Origin: a virus
Lineage: Duplodnaviria; Heunggongvirae; Uroviricota; Caudoviricetes
DNA: 64,000 bases
Direction: 5' to 3' (one strand)
Virus record (IMG/VR): IMGVR_UViG_3300021963_008171
Location: 10,995-74,994 of that record
Below, in pieces: positions 3,680 to 60,737 of the stretch. The notes under the pieces were generated by a model that saw only the letters and a program-made list of their open reading frames with translations, ran no database searches and had not been told where the DNA came from. Both the position numbers and the translations under genes were made by a program. How positions within the stretch are numbered: position 1 is the stretch's first letter; the number at the start of each line of letters is the position of its first letter.

Positions 3680-3710
3680 GATATATAAACTGAAAAAATC
3701 CTCATTCCGT
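3680..3710 (+). promoter_or_regulatory. leader box copy 1: GATATATAAAC-TGAAAAAATCCTCATTCCGT
   Basis: Near-identical to 11676-11707. It starts a 168-nt untranslated leader ahead of envelope module I. A strong hairpin (3748-3755 pairing with 3783-3790, plus an inner AGGG/CCCT pair) follows. Confidence 0.5.
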
Positions 3711-3791
3711 GAAAAAAGATACGACCTTTTTACACGAAGATAGTTACAGTCTTTCAGGACAGGGAAACACGAAGCCCTATCAGAAAGACTT

Positions 3792-3799
3792 TATATTTG
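3792..3799 (+). promoter_or_regulatory. TATATTTG = Bacteroidetes-type TAnnTTTG -7 box
   Basis: Exact match to the TAnnTTTG consensus, 47 nt upstream of ATG 3847. Confidence 0.4.
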
Positions 3800-3822
3800 T
3801 CCCTCTCCTGGGATAGTGTGGA

Positions 3823-3847
3823 TTTTTTCCAATTTAATTGGAAAAAA
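3823..3847 (+). promoter_or_regulatory. perfect 12-nt inverted repeat abutting the start codon
   Basis: TTTTTTCCAATT (3823-3834), then T, then AATTGGAAAAAA (3836-3847). The last A is the A of ATG 3847. Confidence 0.4.
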
Positions 3848-4353
3848 TGACAAAGACACTTAAAATCCTATTTATAGCAATTTTTGCTATGGCATTTTCC
3901 TTTCAATCTTTCGGACAAGGAAAATCTGTTCTCATAGGGGAAATCACTAACAAAATTCAAATTGGAAATCTAGCAGGATCTAGGCCATTAACTTTTGGCT
4001 TTAGAAATCTATTGGAGGAATACCTTCAAGAAAACGATTTTGACATCGTAGAAGACGAGACTAAATTTGATTACAAGGTCAACATAGATCTTCTTTTCTT
4101 TGATGTTGAGACCACAAAGTCTAGCGTTGCAATATTCCACAAAAACAATGCAGAGACAGTACTAAAAATAAAGGCATATCTTTTAGATAATAAGGGGAAG
4201 AAAATAAAAGAATGTTTAATAACAGAAAAAGCTTCCGAGATTTCAACATCAACTTTAATAGTTGACGAGGGCGGAAAAATGAATCAACAATCGGTTTCTA
4301 CAGTTATTAAAAAGGTGTGCGGAACAGCAATAAAACAATTATTAACACAATGA
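3847..4353 (+). CDS. secreted short CsgG-like protein
   Basis: Signal peptide MTKTLKILFIAIFAMAFSFQSFGQ. The blocks FGFRNLLEEYLQENDFDIVE, DYKVNIDLLFFDVE and VLKIKAYLLDNKGKKIKE align by eye with CsgG-family blocks and with the paralog at 13503. Confidence 0.5.
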   Translation: MTKTLKILFIAIFAMAFSFQSFGQGKSVLIGEITNKIQIGNLAGSRPLTFGFRNLLEEYLQENDFDIVEDETKFDYKVNIDLLFFDVETTKSSVAIFHKNNAETVLKIKAYLLDNKGKKIKECLITEKASEISTSTLIVDEGGKMNQQSVSTVIKKVCGTAIKQLLTQ

Positions 4354-6005
4354 AAAAACTAATTTTATTATCAGTATTTTTTCTCCTGTTTGGATTCTCA
4401 GGATTTGCACAATTGACGATTAGTCAATCCCTAACACCTACCTCGGGTTTAAAGGTTGGTGACACGATTACAGTTAGATATAATTTAACGAAAGGAACAG
4501 TGATTAAGAATCCTCGTTATCTTTGGTTTAGATATCAGTTTAACAACAAAGCTCTGACTTATGTTTCAACTGCTTTCAATCAAGGATCATCTTCTCAAAC
4601 ATTCTATACAGGTTGGAGCAATTATAAGTTTACGCCAAACGGCGGAGCAAGTGACAATGATCTGGATGTCCAGTATGGTTTAACCCCTTGGAACTACGCA
4701 GTTAATTCTGATTGGAATGTTGGTCAATTAGCGGTTCAAAGAGCAGACCAATCTATTAATGGGTTAATCGCAACACAAAAGTACATTTTGAAGGATCAAA
4801 ATACCTACAACAATATCTTTAAAATAGATTTAGCATCAGGTACGGATACAACAGGTGCAAATGTTGGAACTATTTACGGCGGGGGTTGGTCTTCTATATC
4901 CGGTGTAACTGGTAACACTTCACAATTCAAGGTGAAAGTACTATTCCCTCAGGGATATGCAATCTCTGACCATAATGTTCAATTAATGAAATTAAAATCA
5001 GACGGTAGCGGAGATATCGATTGGTCACAACAGCCTATTGCTCAATTACCTCTAGATGCTACTGGAGAGGCTCTTTTCACAACGCAGGTTAAAGTTGGTG
5101 ATAGCGTTGGTGTGTTTGTATCACCAGCATCCCAAAAATCTTGGATGAATAATGTGATCACGGTTTCTGATGCTTATAAGGCATTTTTAGGACACACACA
5201 AACTGATATCGGCGGAACTGCAAACTTTTTCACTTATCCAGTTTTGGAGAAAAAGGTAGGAAATGTTACTAAAAACGATGCAACGTTTAACGAAGCGGAT
5301 TCTTATAATTTATTCGCTTATGTAATGGGACAAGACGTGTCAGCAAACGCATTCATTCCTACAAGCACTGTGACATCTTGGAGATGGTATAGCGGTTTAT
5401 TAAATCAAAGTTGGTTAGACGGAGTTATTAAGAATAGGGTATTAATTGATACACCTATCAAAGAGGTTTATGCTGTATATGCTTGGGGAGGTGATTTAAA
5501 CTGGTCTCACTCATCAGATCCTGCAGTGATTGCAAGTAGAATATCAGCTGGACAGTATACGAATTCTGTAAATTCAATTCAGACAAACTCTGTTAAATCA
5601 ATGAGTAGTGTTTCCATGGCTTACAGAACAGAAGCAGTTGAAACTGCTAAGCTAAGCGTAACATCAACTTTAGAAAATGGCAAGGTTATTTTAACAACAA
5701 CTTTAACTAAAGCAGAACTAGCAGGTTTACAAGTTGTTATGAACTATGACGAAAGCAAATTAACATTGGATAACGTGGTGTTCGATGCAGGTTCTACTAT
5801 AACGAACTTCTCAACCCACGATGGTGGTAGATTAACATTTGGTTCTATAGATCAATTAAAAACAGCAAGAATTAAAACTGGTACACCTTATAAATTAATC
5901 TTCACACCAAAGGTAGCATTATCAAACACTGCGGGATTATTCTACTTTGTACTATCAGACGCAGTTGACGGCAAAGGAAATAAAATCGACCTAATAGTTG
6001 AATAA
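4350..6005 (+). CDS. secreted protein with a C-terminal cohesin-like module
   Basis: ATG 4350 forms an ATGA overlap with the previous stop. Signal peptide MKKLILLSVFFLLFGFSGFAQ. The C-terminus LQVVMNYDESKLTLDNVVFDAGS...YKLIFTPK parallels the C-terminus of the next protein. Confidence 0.65.
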   Translation: MKKLILLSVFFLLFGFSGFAQLTISQSLTPTSGLKVGDTITVRYNLTKGTVIKNPRYLWFRYQFNNKALTYVSTAFNQGSSSQTFYTGWSNYKFTPNGGASDNDLDVQYGLTPWNYAVNSDWNVGQLAVQRADQSINGLIATQKYILKDQNTYNNIFKIDLASGTDTTGANVGTIYGGGWSSISGVTGNTSQFKVKVLFPQGYAISDHNVQLMKLKSDGSGDIDWSQQPIAQLPLDATGEALFTTQVKVGDSVGVFVSPASQKSWMNNVITVSDAYKAFLGHTQTDIGGTANFFTYPVLEKKVGNVTKNDATFNEADSYNLFAYVMGQDVSANAFIPTSTVTSWRWYSGLLNQSWLDGVIKNRVLIDTPIKEVYAVYAWGGDLNWSHSSDPAVIASRISAGQYTNSVNSIQTNSVKSMSSVSMAYRTEAVETAKLSVTSTLENGKVILTTTLTKAELAGLQVVMNYDESKLTLDNVVFDAGSTITNFSTHDGGRLTFGSIDQLKTARIKTGTPYKLIFTPKVALSNTAGLFYFVLSDAVDGKGNKIDLIVE

Positions 6006-6006
6006 T

Positions 6007-8301
6007 ATGAGATTTTTATTATTTATATTATTTTCTCTAATATCATTTTTAGGGTTCGGACAGAGTGTATCTGCTCCGGACTCTAAATCGTTTATACCAT
6101 CCACAACCGGCCAAGATGGGAGTGGATTCCAATTAAGTGGATTTAGTGCAACATCTACTTTATTAGCATCAATCAGTTTAATCAATCCATCAACAAATAC
6201 TACATTTTACCTTAACGATACACGAGGATTAATTGCCGCAAGTGGATTTACTTTAACGGGTAATAAAACTCGTTTAGTGGTATTGGGAACAATGTCAGAT
6301 ATTAATACTGCATTGGTATCTTTAAAAGTTAATACAGGTTCTGTAGTTGGTAATGTTCAATTATCGGTAGCGGCAACTGTAAACCCTGTTGGATTCTTTT
6401 ACAATGGAGTTAATGGACATTTTTACAAACCCATAACCGCAACCAATGAAAGAACTTCATACACACTTGCAAGAAGTAGGTCATTGCTAACTACATTCAA
6501 AGGACAGACAGGCTATTTGGTAACAATAACATCGGCTTCCGAAGATGCATTTATATTCGCAAATGTTCCTGCAACTAATGTATGGTTTGCTGCAACAGAT
6601 GAAATAAAAGATGGAACTTGGGTAATTGATGCTGGTCCTGAAAAAGGTACTGTGATGAAAACCTCAAATGGACAAACTAATGGAAACATTCCTGGCGTAT
6701 ATAACAACTGGGCACAAGGTGAACCAAATGGTAGTAATGGTAGTGAGAACTATGCAGTGGCAAAGTGGAATGGTGCTGCAAATTGGAACGATTTATCAAA
6801 CAATTGGAGTAATCCTTATGTAATTGAATACGGAACTTGGACTAACCCTGATGATGCAACATTTACTGAATTCTATACTAATAGTGTAACTCACTCAAAT
6901 GGGGAAGTATTGAGAGCAGCATTCAATGTTGATTTCGGAACTAATGTAGATGAAACAAAATTTTCAGCAAAAGCAAATACGTATGTAAATAATTTATGGG
7001 GTACAACAACTAACACATCAAGATCAATTAGTGGATTAGGTAAAGTAGATGTTACAAATGATTTGGATACTGTAAAGATTCAAAACGGAGGATACGTGGG
7101 TTCAATAGTAGGAGGGCAGGTAGAATGGTCTTATGTTAATTTTTATAACGGAGCAACCACACTTTACATTGACATGAGAAAGTTTGGTGCGATCGGTGCA
7201 AATTCTGTATCACACATTACACTCTTAGATGTATACAGTGGACCTGTTACCTTTTTAGGAAATGATGCAACCTGGGCAAGATATACGATACCCTCGACCC
7301 TTCCGAAAGTAACAAACGGAACGTCAACAAATTCACAATATATTCGCAACGCTGGATACGGAGATTATGCATTTATGTGTGAGATTTCATTTGAACTTAA
7401 TCGTGAATATAAACAACACGGAATAGAATTATCGTATACTAATCAAACAGATTTGAACACCCTGTATAATAGTATCGTTACTGTATCTGATGTGTTTATA
7501 GCATTTAAAGAATTATCAAATGGCGGGATATTTGGGGATCAAAGCGGATTGGAATTTACCAACGGTATTCAATTTATGAACGCAGATGTGGACGGTAATG
7601 GATTATTCAATGAATCCGACACGTATAAATTATTACAGCACCTAACTGGAGTTCAGCCATTAACACAAAATCCATTATTAACATTCTTGATGAAGCTTTA
7701 TAGCAAATCTGATTATGATGCAATTACAAAATCAAATTGGAACACAAGATTTAATTCTACGAGAAGTCTATTTCCATTTAGTTTAAATACGGGTACCCTT
7801 AATAACACATACAATGTGAACGTAACCTGGATAGGTGACGTAAACCTTTCTCATTCGGCACAACAAACTGCAAGCGGTGTTGCAACCAATTCATATAGAA
7901 GCATGAGCCTAATGACTAATACAACCACTAATGAAATAAATGCATCAATCATGGGTGAAAATGTTGGAGGTAAGGTTATAGTAACGATATCAGTAGACCC
8001 ATTACAGCAAGAATTAGTAGGAACCCAATTCCAGTTGAATTATGATAATACCTCGTTGGAATTTCAAAAAGTAGATTTTATAACAAAAGGTAATCCAACA
8101 AATTTTGGAACAGATAAAGGATCTTATATCACATTGGGATCATTAATCACTGATGGATCAACAATATTAGACAAAACAACAGAATATAAAATAACATTCG
8201 TACCAAAAATTGGATTAACTGGAACATTAGGGTTAACTTCTGTTTCAGCAACAGATGCTGTTAATAAAGCAGGAACTCAATTAAAAGTAAAATTAAACTA
8301 A
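6007..8301 (+). CDS. secreted multidomain protein: C-type lectin, dockerin-like EF-hand repeat and cohesin-like C-terminus
   Basis: Signal peptide MRFLLFILFSLISFLGFGQ. C-type lectin signature GHFY...YLVTITSASEDAFI...WFAATD...WAQGEPNGSNGSENYAV...WNDLS...YVIEYG. Dockerin-like MNADVDGNGLFNESDTYKLLQHLTG. C-terminus FQLNYDNTSLEFQKVDF...YKITFVPK. Confidence 0.75.
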   Translation: MRFLLFILFSLISFLGFGQSVSAPDSKSFIPSTTGQDGSGFQLSGFSATSTLLASISLINPSTNTTFYLNDTRGLIAASGFTLTGNKTRLVVLGTMSDINTALVSLKVNTGSVVGNVQLSVAATVNPVGFFYNGVNGHFYKPITATNERTSYTLARSRSLLTTFKGQTGYLVTITSASEDAFIFANVPATNVWFAATDEIKDGTWVIDAGPEKGTVMKTSNGQTNGNIPGVYNNWAQGEPNGSNGSENYAVAKWNGAANWNDLSNNWSNPYVIEYGTWTNPDDATFTEFYTNSVTHSNGEVLRAAFNVDFGTNVDETKFSAKANTYVNNLWGTTTNTSRSISGLGKVDVTNDLDTVKIQNGGYVGSIVGGQVEWSYVNFYNGATTLYIDMRKFGAIGANSVSHITLLDVYSGPVTFLGNDATWARYTIPSTLPKVTNGTSTNSQYIRNAGYGDYAFMCEISFELNREYKQHGIELSYTNQTDLNTLYNSIVTVSDVFIAFKELSNGGIFGDQSGLEFTNGIQFMNADVDGNGLFNESDTYKLLQHLTGVQPLTQNPLLTFLMKLYSKSDYDAITKSNWNTRFNSTRSLFPFSLNTGTLNNTYNVNVTWIGDVNLSHSAQQTASGVATNSYRSMSLMTNTTTNEINASIMGENVGGKVIVTISVDPLQQELVGTQFQLNYDNTSLEFQKVDFITKGNPTNFGTDKGSYITLGSLITDGSTILDKTTEYKITFVPKIGLTGTLGLTSVSATDAVNKAGTQLKVKLN

Positions 8302-9194
8302 TGAAAAGGATAACAATCATATTAATCTTACTTTTCATAGGGGTTTATTCTAAAGCACAAATTGTAAAACCTGATACGTTACAGCTTTCACCTAAAGAAT
8401 TGTTTGGTGAGAGTGATGATTGGAATGATATAGGTATATTACAATCCTATATTGATTTTTCAAAAGACGTTCTTTCATCCTCAAATCTATCTGTTGGTAT
8501 AATCGGAAAACAGGTGTCAAGTACTTTAAATCTGGGATACAGTAAATGGTCTAATAATGGAGTATGGGGACACTCATTTTCCACATCAATAAATCCGATA
8601 TGGAATTATTATGGTGTTGGTTATGGATTTAGTAGAAATACTGATAAGAGAACAACAACATTACAAACATTCTATTCAACTGATTTTGATTTTCAAAAAG
8701 ATATCAGTATTTCATTTATAGATGTTTTCAGGACAAAAAAGTTTGGGACATTTGGGTATAGCTTAATTGCATCAAAAACATTTTGGGGAACATATGAAGG
8801 AGCATGGGAAGGAAAATACACAGTTGATGCGAATGGTAATTTTTTGGATTTGATTTACCCACAAATGCCGGCATCATCCGAAATGATTTATAAAGGAATG
8901 TTAATGTACACATATACAATCAAAACAAAGAGAGTTAATATATCCCCACAAATATTTGCTATGAGCGACATCTATAAAGATTTTAAGGATGGTACCTCTT
9001 CGGATTTAGCATATCTTGATGATTTCAATTTGGATTTATATTATGGTACATCATTCGATTGGAAAATAACTAAAAGATTTGTTTTAAACACTAATATTAG
9101 ATTCAACAAAACGTGGGATAAATTAAGCGAGTCTGTTGGATATAAAAAAAGTAATCCAATAATGTTTATGATAGGAACAAACTTTCAATTTTAA
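8301..9194 (+). CDS. outer-membrane beta-barrel-like protein (paralogous to the C-terminus of 10224..11669)
   Basis: Signal peptide MKRITIILILLFIGVYSKAQ. Alternating aromatic/Gly-rich strands with a terminal ...MIGTNFQF. Shared blocks: ISPQIFAMS/IAPQVFVTS and GTSFDWKITKRFVLNTNIRFN/GFSYDYKLTGRFGLNLNYRFS. Confidence 0.6.
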   Translation: MKRITIILILLFIGVYSKAQIVKPDTLQLSPKELFGESDDWNDIGILQSYIDFSKDVLSSSNLSVGIIGKQVSSTLNLGYSKWSNNGVWGHSFSTSINPIWNYYGVGYGFSRNTDKRTTTLQTFYSTDFDFQKDISISFIDVFRTKKFGTFGYSLIASKTFWGTYEGAWEGKYTVDANGNFLDLIYPQMPASSEMIYKGMLMYTYTIKTKRVNISPQIFAMSDIYKDFKDGTSSDLAYLDDFNLDLYYGTSFDWKITKRFVLNTNIRFNKTWDKLSESVGYKKSNPIMFMIGTNFQF

Positions 9195-9197
9195 AAG

Positions 9198-9455
9198 ATG
9201 AAAAAAATATTAATTATATCATTTTTATTCTTAACAATATCATCTTGTACTAGTTACAAGATTAGGGTAATACAGTATGATGGAACTGGATATTCGTTGT
9301 ATTTGCCAATGAAAAAACACGGATTGGATAAATGGTACGATGATAACATTGTGTACTATTCTGAAGAGATGGCAAGGTTTAAAATTAAAAAATGGAAGAG
9401 TGAGGAATATCATTCGGATCCGTGGAAAAAACCAAAATACATTAAAATAAATTAA
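9198..9455 (+). CDS. small lipoprotein
   Basis: MKKILIISFLFLTISSC contains a lipobox Cys. 85 codons. Confidence 0.6.
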   Translation: MKKILIISFLFLTISSCTSYKIRVIQYDGTGYSLYLPMKKHGLDKWYDDNIVYYSEEMARFKIKKWKSEEYHSDPWKKPKYIKIN

Positions 9456-9799
9456 TGAAAAAGATATTATTCATATTTCTGATTTTACTGTATGGATGTA
9501 CTAAACCGGAGTTACCAACACCGGCACCGCCAGTCGAAAAAATATTTGATGTTGGGGAGAGTAGTGTTACCAATGGACAATCTTTGTATTTTGATTTACC
9601 ATCACCTGGAGTTTATATTTTATCCTTAATTGATAAAGAGACAAACCAAGTAATAAGCAGAGAAAAATTCGTGGGTCAGATTGGGGAGAATTCAAGAAAG
9701 ATCTATACCAATTCTATAAAATCACAAACGCTATATCTATTGTTGTCAGATTCTTCTAAAAACGAGATGAAAAGAACAACTATATTAATAAGAAAATAA
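9455..9799 (+). CDS. small lipoprotein, beta-sandwich-like (T9SS-CTD-like pattern)
   Basis: MKKILFIFLILLYGC lipobox. The stretch GQSLYFDLPSPGVYILSLIDKETNQVIS...LYLLL resembles the Por-secretion-tail / Ig-like pattern. Confidence 0.55.
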   Translation: MKKILFIFLILLYGCTKPELPTPAPPVEKIFDVGESSVTNGQSLYFDLPSPGVYILSLIDKETNQVISREKFVGQIGENSRKIYTNSIKSQTLYLLLSDSSKNEMKRTTILIRK

Positions 9800-9810
9800 A
9801 ATAAAAAGAA

Positions 9811-10185
9811 ATGAAAAAATCACTAATCTTCTCAATCTGCGTTATTCTATTTGCAGGATGTACAAAAGACGACATGCTAATTCCTATGCAGGAACAAATT
9901 AAACCAGAGCTTGCTATTCAAAACAGCGTGGGTATTAAATTAGAAACCCCATTTGTTTCCAAGGAAGTTTCAATGAACGTAAAATTGGAAAAGGAAGGTA
10001 CTGTAGTTATTAAAATAACTGACATATCAAATAGAGTTGTATCTAAGGAACAGGTTAATGTAAAGGCTGGAGATAATCTATTGAAAGTTTATACCTCTGC
10101 TTTACCATCTTCTTCATATAGAATTGGTATCTACGACTCTAGTAACAATCTTCTAGGAATAACAGACTTTAATAAGATAAACTAA
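9811..10185 (+). CDS. small lipoprotein, beta-sandwich-like (T9SS-CTD-like pattern)
   Basis: MKKSLIFSICVILFAGC lipobox. The stretch VVIKITDISNRVVSKEQVNVKAGDNLLKVYTSALPSSSYRIGIYD matches the xIxIxDxxGRxV...G.N...L..G.Y pattern. Confidence 0.55.
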   Translation: MKKSLIFSICVILFAGCTKDDMLIPMQEQIKPELAIQNSVGIKLETPFVSKEVSMNVKLEKEGTVVIKITDISNRVVSKEQVNVKAGDNLLKVYTSALPSSSYRIGIYDSSNNLLGITDFNKIN

Positions 10186-10223
10186 AAGATTATCTTAAAA
10201 TATTTGAGGCGGAGAAAAATTGA

Positions 10224-11669
10224 ATGAAGAAATTATTATTGTTCCTTTTATTGGTAGTAGCATCCTTTGCTGCTAGTGCACAGACCTTCACCCAGACCTA
10301 TGTGGATAAATGTACTGGGGAGCTCAAAGTTGTGGTGTCTGCTCCTATGCCCAATGGTGGAGTAATGATTTCTTTTTATAATCAAATGAAGATATTCACG
10401 AATGCGCAGGTCAATGACGGAACGGTTCAAAAATGGCTGAATCAAGTTTATACTGATTATAATACAAGACCTTGTCCAGTAAGTACTGTTGCTGTACAAA
10501 CAGTTCAACAAACTGTTGCACAAGCGGCATCAGCTGCTGCATCTGCTGCAGCTTCTTCCGCAGCAAGTAATGCAGCTTCATCTGCAGCTAGTTCTTCGGC
10601 ATCAGCTGCTGCTTCATCGTCTGCAAGTAGCGCTGCAAGTTCTTCTGCATCATCTTCTGCTAGTGCTTCTGCTGGTTCATCCGCGGGTGCTTCTGCTGGT
10701 TCATCAGGAGGTCCTTCTTCTCAAAGCTCAGGCGGATCTTCAGGTTCATCTAGCTCTAACGGGGAAAGTAAAAGTAGTGGATCATCATCAGGAGAATCAA
10801 AATCTGAAAGTAAAGCTGAATCAAAATCTGAAAGTAAATCAGAATCAAAATCCGAAAGTAAAAGTGAGGAGAAGAAAGAGGAAAGCAAATCTGAGAGTAA
10901 AAAAGAGGAGAAGAAAGAGGAGAATAAAAAAGAAGAAGAGAAGAAAAAAGAGGAGGAGAAAAAGAAAGAAGAGGAAAAGAAGAAGAAAGAAGAGGAAAAG
11001 AAGAAGAAACAATCCGTTAGTAATCCCACACTAGTTGCTTCCGATCTTGCAGTAACACAAGGAAATGACGGTAGATATTCTGCTATGATATCAACAGGTA
11101 TAAGCAAATCTTCCATGACGGGAACGGAAAGTTGGGGATTAACATCCATGATATGGACAACATTTGATCAATTTGCTTTGAATGGCGGATACACTAAAAT
11201 GAATTTCGAAAAAGGCAAATTAAAGAACATAGATTCATATTCTATGACATTAGCATACCTTCAGGGAAATATCATGATTATGCAGGGTTATACGCACATT
11301 AAACCGGATCCTAAGATAGGTACTTATGGATTTAACGTAGGAGTTGTTAGCTTATTATTAAAGGATGGAAATAAGTATACCTATTCTGCTTCTTTTTCGT
11401 CCATCGGATTTTGGACAAAGATTTATCAGGTAAATAAAAAAACATCAATAGCTCCTCAGGTTTTCGTAACAAGCTCCCCGATATCATGGAATCCAAACAC
11501 CAATCAAACCTTGGTAAACAGACATTACGGATATATGACAGGGTTTTCGTATGACTACAAATTAACTGGAAGATTCGGGCTTAATCTAAATTATAGATTT
11601 TCTGGATCAACCCAAGCGGGAACACCGATATTGCATAATTTTATGATAGGATCGAGGATTATGCTGTAG
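10224..11669 (+). CDS. secreted protein: N-terminal domain, long Ser/Ala to Ser/Gly to Ser/Glu/Lys to Glu/Lys low-complexity linker, and C-terminal beta-barrel-like domain
   Basis: Signal peptide MKKLLLFLLLVVASFAASAQ. The linker spans roughly 160 residues. The C-terminal ~200 aa are paralogous to 8301..9194 and end ...FMIGSRIML. Confidence 0.65.
   Translation: MKKLLLFLLLVVASFAASAQTFTQTYVDKCTGELKVVVSAPMPNGGVMISFYNQMKIFTNAQVNDGTVQKWLNQVYTDYNTRPCPVSTVAVQTVQQTVAQAASAAASAAASSAASNAASSAASSSASAAASSSASSAASSSASSSASASAGSSAGASAGSSGGPSSQSSGGSSGSSSSNGESKSSGSSSGESKSESKAESKSESKSESKSESKSEEKKEESKSESKKEEKKEENKKEEEKKKEEEKKKEEEKKKKEEEKKKKQSVSNPTLVASDLAVTQGNDGRYSAMISTGISKSSMTGTESWGLTSMIWTTFDQFALNGGYTKMNFEKGKLKNIDSYSMTLAYLQGNIMIMQGYTHIKPDPKIGTYGFNVGVVSLLLKDGNKYTYSASFSSIGFWTKIYQVNKKTSIAPQVFVTSSPISWNPNTNQTLVNRHYGYMTGFSYDYKLTGRFGLNLNYRFSGSTQAGTPILHNFMIGSRIML
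10523..11010 (+). repeat. coding low-complexity tract including a 3 x 24-nt tandem repeat (10794-10865)
   Basis: GAATCAAAATCTGAAAGTAAAGCT, GAATCAAAATCTGAAAGTAAATCA and GAATCAAAATCCGAAAGTAAAAGT encode ESKSESK(A/S). GCN/TCN runs lie upstream and GAA/GAG/AAA/AAG runs downstream. Confidence 0.85.
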
Positions 11670-11675
11670 AAAAAA

Positions 11676-11707
11676 GATATATAAAGTTGAAAAAATCCTC
11701 ATTCCGT
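11676..11707 (+). promoter_or_regulatory. leader box copy 2: GATATATAAAGTTGAAAAAATCCTCATTCCGT
   Basis: Matches 3680-3710 except for one substitution and one inserted T. It begins 7 nt after the stop of 10224..11669 and heads a 168-nt leader before ATG 11844. Confidence 0.5.
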
Positions 11708-11843
11708 TAGCAAGAAATCTACATTTCTTCGTACGTCTTTTCAAAACTAGCTGGCTTATTGCCGGAAACCTGTATGAAAGGCGGGTCTCAACTTTGAGTA
11801 TTTTTTCTAGGTATTAAAAAAAACCGAATATAAAATAAACAAA

Positions 11844-12158
11844 ATGAGCGAAGAAACAGAAAACGACGGAACCTGGTCAGGTTTAAAAAAGACAATCGTA
11901 GGAGTACTTGGTACAGTAGTAACTGCAGGTGGAGTATTTTTAACTACACTATTAGGAGGCGGAGATAAAGACGAAGCCCCAGCACCAGCAGCCCCAGTAA
12001 TTAACATCACAAACTCAAATCAACAGCAACAAGCAGCAGGAAAAACCGTGATTATTCAGGGTGGCAACAATGGCGGAACAGGCAAACCAGCAGCTCCAGC
12101 TCCAGCACCTAAGAAGAAAGAAGGTGATGAGTTTAAAGAGGAAGCACCAAAATGGTAA
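11844..12158 (+). CDS. single-pass membrane protein with Pro/Ala-rich segments
   Basis: TM helix IVGVLGTVVTAGGVFLTTLLGGG, then APAPAAP ... KPAAPAPAPKKK. Confidence 0.55.
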   Translation: MSEETENDGTWSGLKKTIVGVLGTVVTAGGVFLTTLLGGGDKDEAPAPAAPVINITNSNQQQQAAGKTVIIQGGNNGGTGKPAAPAPAPKKKEGDEFKEEAPKW

Positions 12159-12334
12159 ATATGGAACAAGGGCTAAGTTTCATAGCAGTAGTTGCAGTAT
12201 GTTCAATAGCTATGTTTGTATTTAATTCACCAATAATGTTTTTAACATCTTTTATAATTGGATGTAGCTACTTGGTATTAAGAGGGAGAAAAAAGGGGTG
12301 GAGATTACCCAAAGATATAAAAAATACACATTAA
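12152..12334 (+). CDS. small two-helix membrane protein
   Basis: LSFIAVVAVCSIAMFVF and IMFLTSFIIGCSYLVL. The start is either ATG 12152 or ATG 12161. Confidence 0.45.
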   Translation: MVNMEQGLSFIAVVAVCSIAMFVFNSPIMFLTSFIIGCSYLVLRGRKKGWRLPKDIKNTH

Positions 12335-12348
12335 TAGAATAAATTAAA

Positions 12349-12918
12349 ATGGCAGAAAAAAATCAACAACCAAGTGGATTTAAAGACCTATTAAACTCGA
12401 TGATGACCCGCAGATGGTACATCACCGCATTAGTGTTAGGCGGATTTATGCTAATACTAGCAGGAATGTTTGCAGCTATAGGAATAGGAACCAAAATGGC
12501 AGGAGAATGGAAAGAGCTTCTTCTTTTATTATTAGGGGCTTTTATTGGCTCTTATGGTAAGATTATAGACTACTGGTTCTCAGATACCGACAAAGACAAG
12601 ATGCTAGTTCAGAAGATGGACGAAGAAGATGGAACTACTTTATCTCATACTAATGACATGAAGGAAACTAACAAGCCATACGCACCAACTATCCCTGATG
12701 CATTTGTTGCAGGAGCACAAGCTGCTAGAGAATTAGCAGTGGTTGAAAATCAGCAAAATTTTGAATTGGCTAAGGATCAACAAGAGCACGAGCAGGAAAT
12801 GGAAAAGCTTGAATATGAATCTCATAGACAATGCGAGCATGAATGGGGTGATTCCGATAATGATGGAGAACTTGAATGTCAAAAATGCGGATTGTTAAAA
12901 GACAATTTCGAGGGTTAA
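12349..12918 (+). CDS. membrane protein with an acidic/coiled C-terminal domain containing a CxxC pair
   Basis: Two hydrophobic helices (WYITALVLGGFMLILAGMFAAIGIG and LLLLLLGAFIGSYG). The C-terminus reads ...HRQCEHEWGDSDNDGELECQKCG. Confidence 0.55.
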   Translation: MAEKNQQPSGFKDLLNSMMTRRWYITALVLGGFMLILAGMFAAIGIGTKMAGEWKELLLLLLGAFIGSYGKIIDYWFSDTDKDKMLVQKMDEEDGTTLSHTNDMKETNKPYAPTIPDAFVAGAQAARELAVVENQQNFELAKDQQEHEQEMEKLEYESHRQCEHEWGDSDNDGELECQKCGLLKDNFEG

Positions 12919-12942
12919 TCCCAAACAATATAAAATAATAAC

Positions 12943-13197
12943 ATGACTTTTAAAGAATGGATCATAGATCTTTTTAAAGACGAAAGAGGAGCAATTTCAG
13001 TAAAACCTGTGATTGCATTTGTTGGATCATTATTCCTTTGCGGAACGATGTTAGCTAACTCTTTCAGTGAAGAGCATTTTAAACCAGCAGCAGAATTGGT
13101 GAATGCAGTAATGGTAATAACAGCAATCGGTATGGGCGCTGATACATTAGATAAATTCACTAAGAAAGCACCTGCGGACAAGCAAGAAGAAGCTTAA
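12943..13197 (+). CDS. small two-helix membrane protein (holin-like size and topology; unproven)
   Basis: Helices VIAFVGSLFLCGTMLANSF and LVNAVMVITAIGMGA with a charged C-terminus. A hairpin follows at 13204-13225. Confidence 0.5.
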   Translation: MTFKEWIIDLFKDERGAISVKPVIAFVGSLFLCGTMLANSFSEEHFKPAAELVNAVMVITAIGMGADTLDKFTKKAPADKQEEA

Positions 13198-13203
13198 AGT
13201 TGA

Positions 13204-13225
13204 GGAACGGGTTAATCCCCGTTCC
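13204..13225 (+). terminator. terminator-like hairpin
   Basis: GGAACGGG, loop ttaatc, CCCGTTCC: a perfect 8-bp stem 7 nt after the stop. The downstream tract is only weakly T-rich. Confidence 0.4.
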
Positions 13226-13258
13226 CTTCAAATACAAATAAAACACGACTAAACCCCC

Positions 13259-13492
13259 ATGAAAAATCAATTAACAAAAGCAAGTGAATTTCTATTTCAC
13301 GTATACCTAAGACTTTGTCTGTGCTGGGTATTTTTTGCACTAGGAATACAGGTATTCTTTGTGTATTTACAAGTTAGCGATCAACAAGAAAGAATGCGTC
13401 AATATTCAAACGAATTCGAATGGAAATTTGACGGAAGATTTAAAAACAATCCAGAAAACATTATGTACGAAGGACCGACATCTGAAAAATAA
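13259..13492 (+). CDS. small membrane protein
   Basis: Hydrophobic segment FLFHVYLRLCLCWVFFALGIQVFFVYL. 77 codons. Confidence 0.45.
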   Translation: MKNQLTKASEFLFHVYLRLCLCWVFFALGIQVFFVYLQVSDQQERMRQYSNEFEWKFDGRFKNNPENIMYEGPTSEK

Positions 13493-13502
13493 TTAGGAAA
13501 GA

Positions 13503-14240
13503 ATGAAAAAGCAAATATACAACATCTCAATACTGGTCATCGTTTTTATGATTGGTTTTGTTCTGACTACAAAAGCTCAGACTATAGGTAAAACGAAAAC
13601 TGAAGATTTTAAAGCGGACTTCGAAAAGAAGAAGGATATTTCAGCATATCTTGATTACGAGGGTCCAAAGAAAAATATTCAATTGTTAAAGTGCGGAATC
13701 AATGATGAAACGTACGAGGCATATCCAGAATTAAAAGAAAAAAGAGTAGGACTTGGTGTTACTAACATCGTATTAGAATATCTTGATAACCTAAATAGAT
13801 TCGAATTCACTGAGGATAAAACCGAGATTAAAAACAGAATGGTGAAGCAATTCCAAGCATCACAATCTGGAATTTCTGAAAACAAATTAGACGGTAGAGG
13901 AAAGATAAAGCTAGCACACTATTTTGTTGAAATTGAAGTCTATGATTATTCAGTATCTGAAGACGAGTCAATTAGTCTAAAGGATGGCATCAAAGATAAT
14001 CTTGTAACAAGATTGGGTCTTCAGGTTAGATTTACTAATGCAGAGACTGGAGCAATAATAGCAGCATCTGGATTAGGTGAGGCTAAAACAACTAGGGAAT
14101 TAACTCTTGTTGCTGATGCTTCTGTTGACCCTATTAAATTCAATCAATCTACAATTAGTATTTCAACCAAAAAAGCATTGGATATAGCATGTGCAAACAT
14201 TCTAGATAAGATGATTAGAAAGGGAGTATTCCCTCAATAA
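13503..14240 (+). CDS. CsgG-family-like secretion/assembly protein
   Basis: Signal peptide MKKQIYNISILVIVFMIGFVLTTKAQ. The blocks GVTNIVLEYLDNLNRFEFTE, LAHYFVEIEVYDYS and LGLQVRFTNAETGAIIAASGLGEAKT align by eye with E. coli CsgG blocks (ATAMLVTALKDSRWF, ANIMVEGSIIGYES, IAVNLRVVNVSTGEILSSVNTSKT). Confidence 0.65.
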   Translation: MKKQIYNISILVIVFMIGFVLTTKAQTIGKTKTEDFKADFEKKKDISAYLDYEGPKKNIQLLKCGINDETYEAYPELKEKRVGLGVTNIVLEYLDNLNRFEFTEDKTEIKNRMVKQFQASQSGISENKLDGRGKIKLAHYFVEIEVYDYSVSEDESISLKDGIKDNLVTRLGLQVRFTNAETGAIIAASGLGEAKTTRELTLVADASVDPIKFNQSTISISTKKALDIACANILDKMIRKGVFPQ

Positions 14241-14293
14241 ATTTAGGTATAGCTTAAAACACTATGCTTTAGTTACACGACCTAAAGTATAAA

Positions 14294-14941
14294 ATGAACT
14301 TAAAACACGACAATTCCTCACTTAACACCATAGTAGTGGTGTTCTTTCTAGCAATCTCACAACTATTCTACAGCTGTAAGAATAACAGTTCCCCTAGGAA
14401 AGTATCCGATAAAGATAAAGCATCAATAAGTAAAGGATTGTCAGATACAACATTTATTCACGACACCGTGTATGTGGATAATTTAATTCCGTTCGAAGTT
14501 TTAAGGGACACCATAATTTATAGAGATGTCCCGGCTATCGTTGACACTGCTGCGATATTGGGAATGTATAATGTTAAAAAAGTTAAAATCGATACACTCA
14601 AGCTTGATTATGGCTATATCACAGTGGTTGATACTGTTTCTGGAGGTAATATCCTATCTAGAAAATATTTCTCTAAGATTAAGGTACCTGTTAAAGAGAG
14701 GATCGAAAAGATAAAAGAAGAACCTAGGGGTAATCTGTATTTAGGCCTGAATGGGGGTTTAGATAAACCTAACTATGTTTACTCCCTGGGGACTTCTTTT
14801 CTCTATAAAACACCTAAGGATAAAATTTACGAACTTGGTATAGGGGTTTGGAATATGACATCTAATGGAATAGATGGCCAATTCATTCCGTATGTAAAAG
14901 GAGGGGTTTACTGGAAGGTTAACCTCAAAGGGAAGAAATAA
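14294..14941 (+). CDS. lipoprotein with a beta-rich C-terminal domain
   Basis: TIVVVFFLAISQLFYSC lipobox-like signal. The C-terminus is Gly/aromatic-rich (GNLYLGLNGGLDKPNYVYSLGTSFLYK...GGVYWKVNL). Confidence 0.55.
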   Translation: MNLKHDNSSLNTIVVVFFLAISQLFYSCKNNSSPRKVSDKDKASISKGLSDTTFIHDTVYVDNLIPFEVLRDTIIYRDVPAIVDTAAILGMYNVKKVKIDTLKLDYGYITVVDTVSGGNILSRKYFSKIKVPVKERIEKIKEEPRGNLYLGLNGGLDKPNYVYSLGTSFLYKTPKDKIYELGIGVWNMTSNGIDGQFIPYVKGGVYWKVNLKGKK

Positions 14942-15000
14942 TTTGCCATATTTAAATCGAATTATTTCCTGCATAATGATCTATAATCACTAAAAAATGT

Positions 15001-15237
15001 ATGGAAATTAAATCAAGTCCCCTTAATTGCACATTAGTTTTTGATTTTTCCGTGAACGATAAGAGCTTTAATGTTTCTCTTTATCAGGATCTAATCACCA
15101 ACGACAAATCCGTAATAGTCTTAAATCCTGATGGAACAGATGTTGATGATGTTGCATTATGCGATCTTATTGCTAAATATGCTATAGATAAATATAGTAT
15201 CACTTATGATCCGGGTACTGAGGATAACGAGGATTAA
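15001..15237 (+). CDS. hypothetical acidic protein
   Basis: 78-codon ATG ORF, co-oriented. Confidence 0.45.
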   Translation: MEIKSSPLNCTLVFDFSVNDKSFNVSLYQDLITNDKSVIVLNPDGTDVDDVALCDLIAKYAIDKYSITYDPGTEDNED

Positions 15238-15255
15238 TCAATTTAAAAATAGGTT

Positions 15256-15810
15256 ATGATTTTAGAACAAGAAGATTTCTTATCGGAGCAGGATTGCGAT
15301 AAATTAATAGAATTAGCTCGACCCCAACTTTTCAAAACAACAACTTTGGGAAAACCTGTCGATGGATACAGAGTAGCAGAGGGAGCATGGCTTATGTCGA
15401 CAGAAGAAACTGTGTGCAAATTTAGATGCTTAGTATCAGATCTTGTTGGAATTCCAGAGGAGAACATGGAGGGAACACACATAGTTAAATATGAAATAGG
15501 AGGAGAGTATAAGGTTCATCACGATTTTTTCCATCCCAATGAAGGATATTATGATAGGGAAGTAACACAGAGAGGTGGACAGAGAACTAAAACCGCTCTG
15601 GTTTATCTTAATGACGATTTCAAGGGCGGGTCCACTGAATTTCCACAAAAAGAAAGAATTATCACACCAAGGAAAGGAAAATTAGTAGTCTGGTCAAATC
15701 TTAACGAAGATGGAACTTTAGATTTTACAAGTCTTCATGCGGGACTTCCTGTCGAAGAAGGAACAAAATATATTGCAGTAATCTGGATCAGGGAAAATAA
15801 ATTCAGATAA
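15256..15810 (+). CDS. prolyl 4-hydroxylase-like 2OG-Fe(II) oxygenase
   Basis: HxD in YKVHHDFF, the distal His in SLHAGLPV, and the 2OG-binding Lys in TKYIAVIWIRE. TALVYLNDDFKGGSTEFP is typical of the P4Hc family. Confidence 0.8.
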   Translation: MILEQEDFLSEQDCDKLIELARPQLFKTTTLGKPVDGYRVAEGAWLMSTEETVCKFRCLVSDLVGIPEENMEGTHIVKYEIGGEYKVHHDFFHPNEGYYDREVTQRGGQRTKTALVYLNDDFKGGSTEFPQKERIITPRKGKLVVWSNLNEDGTLDFTSLHAGLPVEEGTKYIAVIWIRENKFR

Positions 15811-16368: not shown

Positions 16369-16569
16369 ATGGCAAACACAAAAAAGGCGGTAAAACGCAA
16401 AAACATGGTCCCAGTGGTACAAATGACTCCGGGTGGAAGAAAGTTAAAGAAGTATTCTTCTATTCGTGAGGCAGCAACATCAACAGGCACAGACGCAAGT
16501 AATATCTCAAAAGTTACTAGAGGCGTTTATAAAACTGCTGGTGGATTCCGTTGGCAAACCTCAAAGTAG
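16369..16569 (+). CDS. small DNA-binding protein, NUMOD1/IENR-type HTH-like (as found in homing-endonuclease DNA-binding modules)
   Basis: YSSIREAATSTGTDASNISKVTRGVYKTAGGFRWQ fits the f.Si.eAa..lgi....Is....g..k...Gf.W pattern. The N-terminus is basic. Confidence 0.5.
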   Translation: MANTKKAVKRKNMVPVVQMTPGGRKLKKYSSIREAATSTGTDASNISKVTRGVYKTAGGFRWQTSK

Positions 16570-41694: not shown

Positions 41695-42918
41695 ATGGTT
41701 TGGAATTACCAAGATACAGTGCTAGTTCATGTGGAACTTTCCAATCTTTGCAATGCTGCTTGTCCCCTTTGCCCAAGATATGTAAACAATTCGTTAAGGG
41801 TCAATCCAGAATTGGACTTGGGCAGCGTTTCTTTTGAGGATTTTAAAAAATGGTTCCCTCTAGAATTTGTACAAAAAAGTAAAGGATGGATATTCTGCGG
41901 TACTAATGGCGACCCCATGATGGCTAGAGACGTGTATGAGATATTAGAATATGTTCTCAGAAATTCGACTGCTAAGGTCCAGGTCAACACTAACGGTTCC
42001 ATAAGAGACGGGGAATTTTGGGAAAAAATAGGATCTTTATTTGCCGAGCCCTGTGAAAATAGCAGATATGTTGTTTTCTCTGTTGATGGACTGGAGGACA
42101 CGAACCACATCTACAGAAGAAACGTGAAATGGGAGAGGGTGATGGAAAATATGAGAGCCTATGCAAAATCAGGATCTACTGGTATTTGGGACTTTCTAAT
42201 ATTCAAGCACAATGAGCATCAGCTAGAGGAGGCTGAGCTTCTCTGCAAAGAAATAGGTCTAGCATTTTCTCCAAAAAGACCCTTTGGGTTTGAAACGGGA
42301 AATCCTGATGAATACCAGGACTTAATGGTTTATGACATGGAAGGAAATTTTTTATACAAGATAGAGCCGGCCAGCGAGGAGTGGAGATTAAATAGATCCA
42401 TGAATAAATTTGAGAGAGGAGAGGAAAAAATATGGATTCCGGGAAAGGGGAAAAGAACAGATGATGAAATCAAAGAAAAGTGGAATGGACTGATCGAGAG
42501 GGATCTTCCTAAATATAAATTCCCGGAAAGATTCAAAGAAAAATCAGTTAGTTGCAAATCTTGCCATCCTATCGGGAAGGAAATTTATGTTGATTGTAAG
42601 GGAAATGTTATGCCTTGCTGCTTTGTTGGAACAATGTACAACAGTGACTTTCAACACCACGAGGCATTACAGATAAAAAAACATTTATGGGACTGGGGAT
42701 TGGATAAAATAAATCTGAATAATCATTCTCTCAAAGATATACTAGATAGCAAATATCTAGATGAGGTTTTTGCCAACCGCTGGGAAGGAGCTAAGGATGA
42801 GGATAAAATGGGATATTGCTTTAACACATGCTCGGTTGATCACATGAAAGATCTTTTTGTCAGAAAGGAAAATCTACCAATTTCTTCAGAAAAATCAGGC
42901 AAAAAAAGTCTTATCTAG
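41695..42918 (+). CDS. radical SAM enzyme with a Cys-rich (SPASM/twitch-like) C-terminal region
   Basis: CxxxCxxC in LSNLCNAACPLCPRY. The C-terminal region has CKSCHP...CKGNVMPCCF...CFNTC. Confidence 0.75.
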   Translation: MVWNYQDTVLVHVELSNLCNAACPLCPRYVNNSLRVNPELDLGSVSFEDFKKWFPLEFVQKSKGWIFCGTNGDPMMARDVYEILEYVLRNSTAKVQVNTNGSIRDGEFWEKIGSLFAEPCENSRYVVFSVDGLEDTNHIYRRNVKWERVMENMRAYAKSGSTGIWDFLIFKHNEHQLEEAELLCKEIGLAFSPKRPFGFETGNPDEYQDLMVYDMEGNFLYKIEPASEEWRLNRSMNKFERGEEKIWIPGKGKRTDDEIKEKWNGLIERDLPKYKFPERFKEKSVSCKSCHPIGKEIYVDCKGNVMPCCFVGTMYNSDFQHHEALQIKKHLWDWGLDKINLNNHSLKDILDSKYLDEVFANRWEGAKDEDKMGYCFNTCSVDHMKDLFVRKENLPISSEKSGKKSLI

Positions 42919-42933
42919 GGACATTTTTTGGGC

Positions 42934-42944
42934 GATATATAAAA
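42934..42944 (+). promoter_or_regulatory. GATATATAAAA motif
   Basis: Ends 1 nt before ATG 42946. Confidence 0.35.
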
Positions 42945-42945
42945 T

Positions 42946-47105: not shown

Positions 47106-48076
47106 TAAACAAGAATTCAAGAATTTTAATTACCGGTGGATCTGGATTGGTTGGACAAAATTTAACTGAAAGACTAGTCAGAGAGGGATATACAGATTTA
47201 AGAGTAAATCTTCATAGAAGAGGAGTTAGAAAGGTTCATGACGGTGTTAATTACACATATCATGATCTACAAACATACGAAGGGTGTAAAATCGCAACAG
47301 TGGACGTTGATGTTGTTTTTCATGCCGCTGCTTCAACCTCAAATGCAGTTGATACTGTAGTAGATCCTTTAGCACACGTTACACCAAATGTTGCTATGAA
47401 TAATTTTCTTATAGATGCAGCTTGGAGGAATAATGTACAGCACTATATTTTCATTTCTTCCAATACCGTTTATCCACCAAAGGGTGATGAGCCTGTGGTA
47501 GAAACAGATTTTCTATTTGATGAACCTTATCCAGTATATTTTCCAGTTGGCTGGATGAAAAGATACGCAGAGGTTCAGTGCGAACTTTACGGAAAATATC
47601 TCCCAAGAAAGATGAAATCAACTGTGATAAGACCAGCCAATTTGTTTGGTCCTCATGATAAGTACGATTTCAATAAATGTCACGTTACCCCAGCAACAAT
47701 AAGAAAGGTAGCAGACAAAATGAACCCGATTCCTGTTTGGGGTGACGGATCGGAATTAAGGGATCTCCTTTTCGTAGAAGATTTTGTAGAAGCTCTACAG
47801 ACGGTAATGGAAAAAGAAACTGAAATGTTCGAGGTGTATAATGTTGGATCTAATAAAGTATATTCAGTTCTTGATGTTCTTGAGAAGATGAAAAAGATTG
47901 CAGACTATGATGCACCGACAGAGTTCATTAGTGGAAAGCCTTCTATGATACCAACTAGAAAAATAGATTCTAATAAAATCAAAGAAAAATTAGGATGGGA
48001 GGCAAAAACCCCCCTAGAAGATGGATTGGCTATAGCTTATAATTGGTATCTTGAGAATAATAAAGAATTCAAATAA
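47102..48076 (+). CDS. GDP-L-fucose synthase (Fcl/GMER)-like NAD(P)-dependent epimerase/reductase
   Basis: [14 protein letters not shown]. By-eye matches to E. coli Fcl: [26 protein letters not shown] vs [64 protein letters not shown] vs GWYHEISLEAGLASTYQWFLEN. Confidence 0.75.
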   Translation: [324 protein letters not shown]

Positions 48077-48077
48077 T

Positions 48078-50421: not shown

Positions 50422-50429
50422 AGTCTAAA

Positions 50430-60313: not shown

Positions 60314-60725
60314 GGGGATGACATGGCATTTGATCCGGATGTGGATTTTAATACTACACGCAGAGGTATGGTACTCATCCTCTTTAATCTCGGTACAAAC
60401 AAGTAAACGACGTAGAATTATCTACCATGACTTTCGAAGACGCAATGTCTTTCGTAGGTGCTGATTACGCACTAGCTGCCTAATCACTCCCGCACACATC
60501 GTGGGACTTAAAATAGAATGTGTACCAAGGTGTGATTTCTACCCAAAAAGGAATAAGGTCACGTTCAGAGGACTACCTTAATACAAGTGAACTCGACACA
60601 GTTATTGGTAACGATGTCAAAATAGGAACCATTTATTTTGTTAGGCAAGAAAAACTAGCTAAGCGTGTGAGACGTTAGTATTATTATTTCTTTCGGAGAC
60701 CGGGGTTCGAATCCCCGCATCTCCA
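60314..60725 (+). ncRNA. ssrA: tmRNA (transfer-messenger RNA)
   Basis: 5' GGGGATG pairs with CATCTCC (60718-60724), including a G3:U pair. T-arm CGGGG-TTCGAAT-CCCCG. Discriminator A at 60725. The internal tag frame ends ...GGT GCT GAT TAC GCA CTA GCT GCC TAA (GADYALAA*, stop 60481-60483). Confidence 0.9.
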
Positions 60726-60737
60726 CAAATTTTATAT

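Follow-up and report, generated by a model that had tools for sequence, protein, structure and literature searches.

The gene F, one of seven adjacent open reading frames (ORFs; A to G, Table 1) on a 64,000-nucleotide (nt) stretch of viral DNA (IMG/VR record IMGVR_UViG_3300021963_008171, positions 10,995 to 74,994; this whole stretch is called the window), encodes a genuine, though distant, member of the CsgG superfamily. From the comparisons below, we conclude that F keeps the periplasmic body of CsgG and the position of its constriction loop, but not its membrane pore. Because the membrane-pore features of CsgG are missing, F is probably a periplasmic ring or scaffold and not a secretion channel. 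Genes A-G make up the second half of a single cluster, which comprises about 13 envelope genes (window ~3680-14941). The homology of F and the existence of the cluster are, in our judgement, highly probable, and it is quite probable that F is not a pore of the CsgG type; the function proposed for the whole assembly is far more tentative. An earlier reading of the window (the original prediction) had reported the seven ORFs and described F as a full-length CsgG-like protein; all seven were recovered, on the plus strand.

The relationship of F to CsgG escapes pairwise comparison. BLASTP of F against E. coli CsgG was not significant (E=7), F alone had no match in Pfam (even at E<=1), PHROG, NCBIfam or PADLOC, and phmmer found no match to F in the PDB. 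An exhaustive HMMER search with F returned 204 cluster representatives, and 35 full-length homologues, 18-91% identical to F, were brought into one alignment (A2). The A2 profile retrieved CsgG as its top match from the PDB (hmmsearch, E=1e-4), and hhalign aligned A2 with E. coli CsgG end to end over 221 columns (93%, E=3.4e-7), which bears out CsgG-family homology by profile comparison; the F family likewise aligned with the CsgG of phage HTVC008M (91%, E=1e-6). The block-by-block alignment with CsgG claimed by the original prediction thus holds at the level of profiles and folds, but not for the pair of sequences as such. Individually, 19 of the 35 A2 members match Pfam CsgG (PF03783; best E=1.9e-17), and six match Pfam LpoB. 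F itself does not reach the gathering threshold of PF03783, and its close phage relatives (P0123-P0143) are without a match, too; cellular relatives that are 28-31% identical to F pass with 24.5-35.9 bits against a cut-off of 20.8, and the link between F and Pfam CsgG is therefore transitive. The AlphaFold2 monomer model of F, built with A2, has a mean pLDDT (predicted local distance difference test) of 80. Foldseek ranked CsgG structures first when this model was compared with the PDB (4UV2, 6L7C and 4UV3, E ~5e-7), followed by PelC, FlgT, LptE and GNA1162, i.e., the envelope ring/plug lipoprotein fold class, and in a viral structure library the best match was a CsgG-annotated protein of an uncultured phage. 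Conservation was counted with tblastn in 84 related phage loci: F homologues occur in all 84, with a median identity of 84%.

The CsgG channel is a nonameric lipoprotein with a 36-stranded barrel, to which each subunit contributes two hairpins (PMC4594475, PMC7304575), and its constriction consists of stacked rings of Tyr66, Asn70 and Phe71 in precursor numbering (PMC7304575, PMC4594475). In CsgG-like translocators, the Phe ring and a hydrogen-bonding ring are reported as required (PMC4594475). We mapped these features onto F through its hhalign alignment with E. coli CsgG. The two transmembrane (TM) hairpins of CsgG, TM1 and TM2, we take to span mature residues 134-154 and 184-208, presumably as delimited in the 2014 structure paper. 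The TM1 equivalent of F (EDESISLKDGIKDNLVT) has 17 amino acids (aa), seven of them charged (41%) and none aromatic, whereas TM1 of E. coli CsgG (VKSGGVGARYFGIGADTQYQL) has 21 aa with three charged and three aromatic residues; the TM2 equivalent has 19 aa, six charged (32%) and none aromatic, against 25 aa with five aromatic residues in CsgG. Short polar hairpin equivalents are common to all 35 family members, phage and cellular, and neither face of the predicted hairpin strands of F is hydrophobic. In the constriction loop, Tyr66 of CsgG corresponds to Y74 of F, which is followed by P75 and is more than 90% conserved in the family, but Asn70 is replaced by K78 and Phe71 falls into a gap. The N-terminus of F is a signal peptidase I-type signal peptide without Cys (MKKQIYNISILVIVFMIGFVLTTKA/QT). 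Neither F nor its homologue gp017 of Flavobacterium phage vB_FspM_immuto (hereafter immuto) has a Cys in the signal peptide region, so neither has a lipobox; in more distant relatives of F, a GC or AC lipobox is present. As a channel, then, the "full-length CsgG-like" protein did not survive the constriction-loop check and the comparison of hairpins (17 and 19 aa against 21 and 25 aa). Nor did the partners of CsgG come to light: searches of A-E and G with Pfam, NCBIfam and PHROG gave no relative of CsgE, CsgF, CsgA or CsgB, and hhalign of the families of A, C, D, E, G and 3838 (the short paralogue of F, see below) against HTVC008M CsgF and its neighbours stayed at or below 5% probability. The CsgE/F-like role once suggested for the small proteins is thus not borne out for A, C, D, E and G.

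Table 1. Positions in the window of the genes and sequence elements discussed (aa, amino acids; nt, nucleotides)
Feature	Position	Strand	Description
Leader box copy 1	3680-3710	+	~147 nt upstream of 3838-4353
3838	3838-4353	+	short paralogue of F; 171 aa, secreted, CsgG/PelC-size fold
10224	10224-11669	+	481 aa, secreted; directly after F in most relatives
Leader box copy 2	11676-11707	+	GATATATAAAGTTGAAAAAATCCTCATTCCGT; ~155 nt upstream of A
A	11844-12158	+	104 aa, bitopic membrane protein
B	12152-12334	+	60 aa, hydrophobic mini-ORF
C	12349-12918	+	189 aa, membrane protein
D	12943-13197	+	84 aa, two hydrophobic segments, charged C-terminus
Hairpin	13204-13225	+	perfect, 8 bp, GC-rich; GGAACGGG/CCCGTTCC, 6-nt loop, just 3' of D stop
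E	13259-13492	+	77 aa, membrane-anchored
F	13503-14240	+	245 aa, secreted, CsgG superfamily, without CsgG membrane hairpins and phi-clamp
G	14294-14941	+	215 aa, LFYSC lipobox

The product of 3838 is, as judged from profile comparison, a short CsgG-fold paralogue of F. BLASTP between the two proteins was not significant; hhalign of the two families gave 90.6% (E=1.3e-6), aligning residues 47-170 of the short protein with 78-235 of F with a single 29-residue deletion. The expectation of two CsgG-like genes in the window is thereby upheld, the second being the shorter one. A homologue of 3838 is present in 57 loci. Short-plus-long CsgG-fold pairs were also found on two GC-rich cellular metagenome contigs (L087, 5862-7072; L088, 2587-3944), in which the F-like protein is a lipoprotein that passes Pfam CsgG and the shorter paralogue (176 or 216 aa) lies directly upstream with overlapping stop and start codons, and on a marine contig F-like, 10224-like and 3838-like genes are consecutive. 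The cellular short-plus-long pair appears to be uncharacterised.

The window is part of a large, uncultured, immuto-related phage of Bacteroidota. It is assigned there because F is 52.5% identical to immuto gp017, because two metagenomic contigs (L003, L004) are near-identical to it, and because a relative of F is encoded on 490 IMG/VR viral contigs of up to 334 kb; among cultured phages, megablast with the DNA of the region gave no match. Immuto is a 160-kb myophage of Baltic Sea origin. The lineage consists of large, widespread, aquatic Flavobacterium-type phages with genomes of ~160-330 kb, and 6112 relatives are found in the databases. The G+C content of the window is ~35%, and its ORFs stand in long same-strand runs.

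Gene order was read in the best 80 of the 490 F-encoding viral contigs. The recurrent order is (E-)3838, 4317, 5998, (8301), 9455, 9811, A, C, (D), (E), F, 10224, G, all cluster products carrying a signal peptide, a lipobox or a membrane anchor, and the flanking genes belong to nucleotide and DNA metabolism and replication. The two separate envelope modules of the original prediction are therefore not a general arrangement: most relatives have the single cluster 3838...A-C-(D)-E-F-10224-G, and only in the sublineage of the window (nine other loci) does 10224 lie upstream of A. The split into two halves is a local rearrangement of this sublineage, in which the leader box is duplicated. In immuto, a lectin-annotated gene, a cohesin-annotated gene, A-like gp016, F-like gp017 and 10224-like gp018 follow in a row, so that the linkage of the last three genes extends as far as a cultured phage. 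Presence varies for 8301, D and 9198, which some relatives have and others do not.

The protein of 10224 consists of a small N-terminal domain with two Cys, a low-complexity spacer of ~170 residues (Ser/Ala repeats, then ESK and EEEKKK repeats resembling a single helix of the ER/K type) and a C-terminal domain. The last 245 aa are homologous to ORF 8301-9194 (hhalign 100%, E=2e-56), a stand-alone paralogue of the C-terminal domain that is present in 22 loci and absent from the near-identical L003. Both are putative outer-membrane beta-barrels. Neither the PDB nor a protein search with the barrel family offered an annotated counterpart: the family of 8301 and the 10224 C-terminus had no match in the former, and the latter returned only close, unannotated phage relatives. 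Further genes of the cluster were noted in passing. ORFs 4317-6005 and 5998-8301 encode large secreted proteins that share their C-terminal ~290 residues (26-27% identity); part of the 5998 protein matches the C-type lectin-annotated protein of immuto, and the adjoining immuto gene is annotated with a cohesin domain. The two proteins may serve the cluster as cargo or as surface components. ORFs 9455-9799 and 9811-10185 are adjacent and encode small paralogous lipoproteins (~29-30% identity) kept in 41 loci, one of which has a weak match to DUF3244 (E=0.006).

For the small proteins, the original prediction of five membrane ORFs with one or two hydrophobic helices was largely sustained. A Kyte-Doolittle scan gave each of A-G at least one strong hydrophobic segment (a second one in B, C and D was placed by eye), and homologues were found for A in 68 of the 84 loci (median identity 56%), for C in 74 (56%), for D in 20 (82%), for E in 72 (46%) and for G in 52 (41%). 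These counts show A, C, D, E and G to be real, conserved, envelope-targeted proteins. B does not share in this, with a homologue in one locus only. In L003 and L006, whose neighbouring genes are 95-99% identical to those of the window, the slot of B holds an unrelated hydrophobic ORF of 34 aa, the ATGGTAA at the end of A serving as the start of both variants, and in L005 there is no gap at this site; B is a variable slot rather than a conserved gene. The original prediction had named two outcomes that would speak against it, no CsgG-family match and small ORFs without conservation in related genomes; instead, F proved homologous to CsgG and A, C, D and E conserved. A, C, D, E and G had no match in Pfam, PHROG, NCBIfam or PADLOC apart from a sub-threshold score of D against TIGR01598 (holin_phiLC3; E=0.067, 13.5 bits against a cut-off of 39.7), and tblastn with C, D and G as queries found no homologue in cultured phages.

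A starts with a short cytoplasmic part, crosses the membrane once (residues 18-36), continues as an extended tail rich in Pro, Ala and Gln, and has KKEGDEFKE...W as an invariant motif at the C-terminus, a layout that suggests a periplasm-spanning tether presenting a docking peptide. Its homologue in immuto, gp016, overlaps the start of gp017. C has hydrophobic segments at residues ~24-46 and ~57-76, an invariant acidic-box motif (GAFIGSYGKIIDYWFSD-DKDKMLVQKMDEEDG) and an acidic C-terminal part ending in HRxCxHxWGDxDxDGxxECxxCG, to which relatives add DxDGDG repeats. A dockerin-like role of C as partner of the cohesin-annotated proteins was considered and dropped, since nothing but the DxDGDG motifs, noticed by eye, spoke for it. 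D is very strongly conserved where it occurs, but most of the relatives that have retained A, C, E and F are without it; its likeness to holins is confined to the format. E has one long hydrophobic segment followed by a conserved motif (WKFDGTFKNNPENIWYE). In many relatives, the E sequence forms the in-frame N-terminus of the short CsgG-fold protein and anchors it, giving fusions of 212-219 aa (L005, 5322-5972; L009, L013, L032, L034, L048, L050 and others); otherwise E is a separate gene just before F. The fusion links E functionally to the CsgG-fold proteins. E was also considered as a CsgF analogue, because its motif FKNNPENI is slightly similar to FKNPAF of HTVC008M CsgF and to FRNPNF, which we take to be the motif of E. 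coli CsgF; this was dropped because hhalign of the E family against HTVC008M CsgF gave 0.2% and because F is without the barrel that CsgF plugs. G, described earlier as a lipoprotein, does have a lipobox (LFYSC, residues 24-28) in this sublineage, but other relatives have a Cys-less membrane anchor at the N-terminus instead. Its periplasmic part is rich in beta structure, and four amphipathic strands with many Gly and aromatic residues lie at the C-terminus, the last residues being GGVYWK; the AlphaFold2 model (pLDDT 45.6) was unusable, and the G profile had no match in the PDB. In most relatives, G follows the 10224 homologue.

The leader box occurs in the window in exactly two copies, one ahead of each half of the cluster as the original prediction had it. 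In relatives, its invariant core (AGATATATAA...AAAAATCCTCAT) precedes A and 3838 at an unchanged distance. Among the related loci, the box was found in nine only (L003, L004, L006-L008, L012, L015, L017 and L075), which are the same nine that have 10224 upstream of A; both sites were seen in five of them, ~150 nt upstream of 3838 and A, and one site was detected in the other four. Copy 2 is likely a promoter or a regulatory site of the A-G unit. On the 3' side of the box (window 3680-3837 and 11676-11843, and the nine relatives) follows a leader of ~130 nt with variable sequence, ending in a hairpin whose stem differs in sequence between loci and in a T-run directly before the start codon; the leader might combine a promoter with a site of attenuation or antitermination. 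Compared with shuffled sequences, folding of the copy 1 leader gave z=-3.2, and that of the copy 2 leader z=-1.1, no better than the shuffles. No Rfam family matches the leader, and a scan of 11400-15400 for sigma-70 promoters and terminators stayed at background level. The hairpin behind D, without a T-run after it, may serve as a terminator or for RNA processing and may separate an A-D unit from an E-G unit.

Set against known systems, F shares with E. coli CsgG (PF03783; 4UV3, 4UV2, 6L7A) ~220 homologous residues, the order of secondary-structure elements, export to the envelope and the Tyr-Pro that opens the constriction loop, and the more distant relatives of F resemble CsgG also in being lipoproteins. 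It differs in having no direct Pfam match, shortened and charged hairpins, a deleted Phe, Lys in place of Asn, a signal peptidase I signal instead of a lipobox, and a short paralogue, with no CsgE, CsgF, CsgA or CsgB at its side. Phage-encoded CsgG is itself already known: pelagimyophages, e.g., HTVC008M, and the Methylophilales phage Melnitz carry csgF and csgG, for which macromolecule uptake, "sibling capture" and lysis timing have been proposed, all unproven, and the role of CsgG in these SAR11 and OM43 myophages is openly called a mystery (PMC7029224, PMC9004378). It is the pore-less, divergent form with a short paralogue that is new. HTVC008M and Melnitz resemble the window in having a CsgG-superfamily gene in a large aquatic myophage with small membrane-protein genes upstream and a 2OG-Fe(II) oxygenase gene nearby; Melnitz, like the window, also encodes a phage transfer-messenger RNA (tmRNA; PMC9004378). 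However, the CsgG of pelagimyophages and Melnitz is 37-40% identical to E. coli CsgG, whereas F is only a profile-level relative of theirs, and HTVC008M CsgG keeps the GGVGARYFGIG hairpin, the constriction-loop Phe and an adjacent CsgF, none of which F has.

PelC (5T0Z, 5T10, 5T11), the dodecameric periplasmic ring lipoprotein of Pel export, matches the fold of F with Foldseek E of 2e-6 to 1e-4 and a probability of 1.0; the TM-scores are low (0.24-0.44), because the proteins differ in length. PelC has no membrane barrel of its own and works under an outer-membrane beta-barrel partner, and by analogy the same may apply to F; the short paralogue 3838 has about the size of PelC. On the other hand, PelC is lipid-anchored and is associated with the PelB porin and with a polysaccharide pathway, whereas F has no lipobox and no such pathway linked to it, and the likeness shown is one of fold, not of sequence. 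The sole pointer to a PelB-type partner of F is its adjacency to 10224 in most relatives. LpoB (PF13036), an outer-membrane lipoprotein that activates PBP1B, shares the fold class, and some F relatives match its model, but these matches are weaker than those to CsgG, F itself has none, and LpoB is active as a monomer whose tether is long and disordered.

The composite explanation that we put forward, a periplasmic ring or scaffold in an envelope complex, has in our estimate slightly less than an even chance. F, probably with the short paralogue 3838, would form a soluble ring or scaffold beneath the outer membrane, in the manner of PelC or of the periplasmic portion of CsgG; its centre would be lined by the YPEL-K/E-K-R loop, which is conserved and charged, and no membrane barrel would be made by F itself. 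The ring might be tied to the inner membrane through the anchored A, with its Pro-rich tether and conserved C-terminal peptide, and through E, and might cooperate with the putative barrels 10224 and 8301 above it, as PelC does under PelB. Gene overlap, fusion and adjacency link A, E, F, 3838 and 10224. The whole assembly would then remodel the envelope or surface of the infected cell rather than lyse it, e.g., by placing the lectin/cohesin-like secreted proteins of the cluster on the surface or by blocking other phages; this biological purpose is the weakest step, and we regard it as doubtful. A bolder version would make the cluster an undescribed cross-envelope machine, in which a hetero-oligomeric, pore-less ring of the two CsgG-superfamily paralogues is tied by A and E and coupled to the barrels 10224 and 8301, which would export or display the lectin/cohesin-like proteins of the cluster, the cellular short-plus-long pair being an uncharacterised bacterial ancestor of the device; taken as a whole, this version is unlikely. 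Several points weigh against the composite explanation. Analogy is the sole basis for supposing that F forms a ring; the model of F has long strands of 16-19 residues that could still form some barrel-like projection; the assignment of 10224 and 8301 as barrels is unproven and derives from a sequence pattern and two weak DUF5777 matches; for C, D and G, no relatives were detected beyond the lineage; and the cellular short-plus-long pairs supply no functional anchor. Moreover, the 80 loci were picked by similarity to F, which exaggerates its conservation; the neighbours of F in those loci are clearly more diverged than F.

Other explanations were weighed against the ring or scaffold. That F is a working CsgG-type (type VIII) outer-membrane channel, with CsgE/F-like small partners, exporting an unfolded substrate, e.g., 10224, is very unlikely and already disfavoured by the data. 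It would draw on the full-length homology to CsgG, on the constriction-loop Tyr-Pro as the most conserved non-core element of the family, on the true CsgG/CsgF genes of other aquatic myophages and on the long beta-strands of the model at the positions of the CsgG membrane hairpins; but these hairpin equivalents are four and six residues shorter, 32-41% charged on both faces and free of aromatic residues throughout the family, the phi-clamp Phe is deleted and the Asn changed to Lys, both being reported as required (PMC4594475), F and gp017 have no lipobox, and no relative of CsgE, CsgF, CsgA or CsgB was found by Pfam or by hhalign against phage CsgF. About as improbable is a role of F and its short paralogue as LpoB/TolB N-domain-like periplasmic regulators of a host machine (a penicillin-binding protein, Bam or type IX secretion). 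The LpoB matches of 6 of the 35 relatives, the fold shared with LpoB, LptE and GNA1162, and the high identity of F (84%, against 41-56% in its neighbours), as expected for a protein with a conserved host partner, would agree with such a role; yet CsgG is consistently the better match, the host partner is not identified, and there would be no explanation why F is linked to proteins that are beta-barrel-like or anchored in the inner membrane.

A lysis or lysis-timing module, with D as holin or pinholin, C, A and G as spanin- or antiholin-like proteins and F as a gated periplasmic or outer-membrane element, we also consider quite unlikely. D does have the format of a class II holin, being small with at least two transmembrane segments and a charged C-terminus, and the weak holin_phiLC3 match points the same way, but most of the relatives with A, C, E and F do not have D, no holin family of PHROG matches it, and neither a family-model match nor a linkage to a relative of the immuto endolysin was found. 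The Melnitz authors proposed phage CsgG as a lysis regulator (PMC9004378). G, although a lipoprotein in this sublineage, is with its 215 aa far larger than an outer-membrane spanin, is beta-rich without a C-terminal helix and is devoid of a lipobox in most relatives; A and C do not show, by eye, the coiled-coil layout of an inner-membrane spanin, and no embedded or overlapping spanin gene pair is present. As the original prediction had already remarked, the window shows no endolysin: neither there nor at up to 10 kb from F in the 84 loci did a relative of the immuto endolysin turn up, other lysin families not having been searched, and in immuto the endolysin gene is ~8 kb away, behind tRNA and queuosine genes. 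A lysis cassette was rejected for want of such a nearby relative; this result and the location of the cluster among replication and nucleotide-metabolism genes both fit a non-lysis role. Finally, the genes might encode no common machine but independently acting envelope proteins (for superinfection exclusion, receptor masking or host takeover) that merely share a promoter, which is not a likely explanation either. Phages often cluster singly acting small membrane-protein and lipoprotein genes, and T4 Imm and Sp and T5 Llp are envelope proteins that act singly; B is freely replaced, D, 8301 and 9198 are variably present among relatives, and no member has an enzymatic or energising domain. Against this, the core order of ~10 genes is kept though the cluster proteins are only 40-56% identical, the homologues of A and F overlap in immuto, many phages have E and the short paralogue as one fused protein, and the short-plus-long CsgG-fold pairing recurs in cellular genomes.

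Besides the CsgG-bearing pelagimyophages and Melnitz, the phages studied here constitute a second, far more divergent and very abundant phage lineage with CsgG-superfamily genes. The loss of the pore, the short paralogue and the envelope cluster suggest that these phages use the periplasmic ring or scaffold of the fold and not curli secretion. Since a cultured member, immuto, is available (gp016-gp018; host Flavobacterium sp. LMO8), the question is directly testable. The survey also brought to light the short-plus-long CsgG-fold gene pair of cellular genomes.

Some observations concern other parts of the window and its relatives. The tmRNA lies at window 60314-60728 (Rfam RF00023, full length, 80 bits; ARAGORN made no tmRNA call) and is directly followed by a tRNA-Met at 60738-60812. 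A block of radical S-adenosylmethionine-like and nucleotide-sugar epimerase-like genes extends over 41695-55234 on both strands and may have a role in DNA hypermodification or surface-glycan chemistry. A NUMOD-type homing-endonuclease-like ORF is situated at 16369-16569, and in L005 an HNH endonuclease gene (9100-9648) is inserted between the homologues of C and D.

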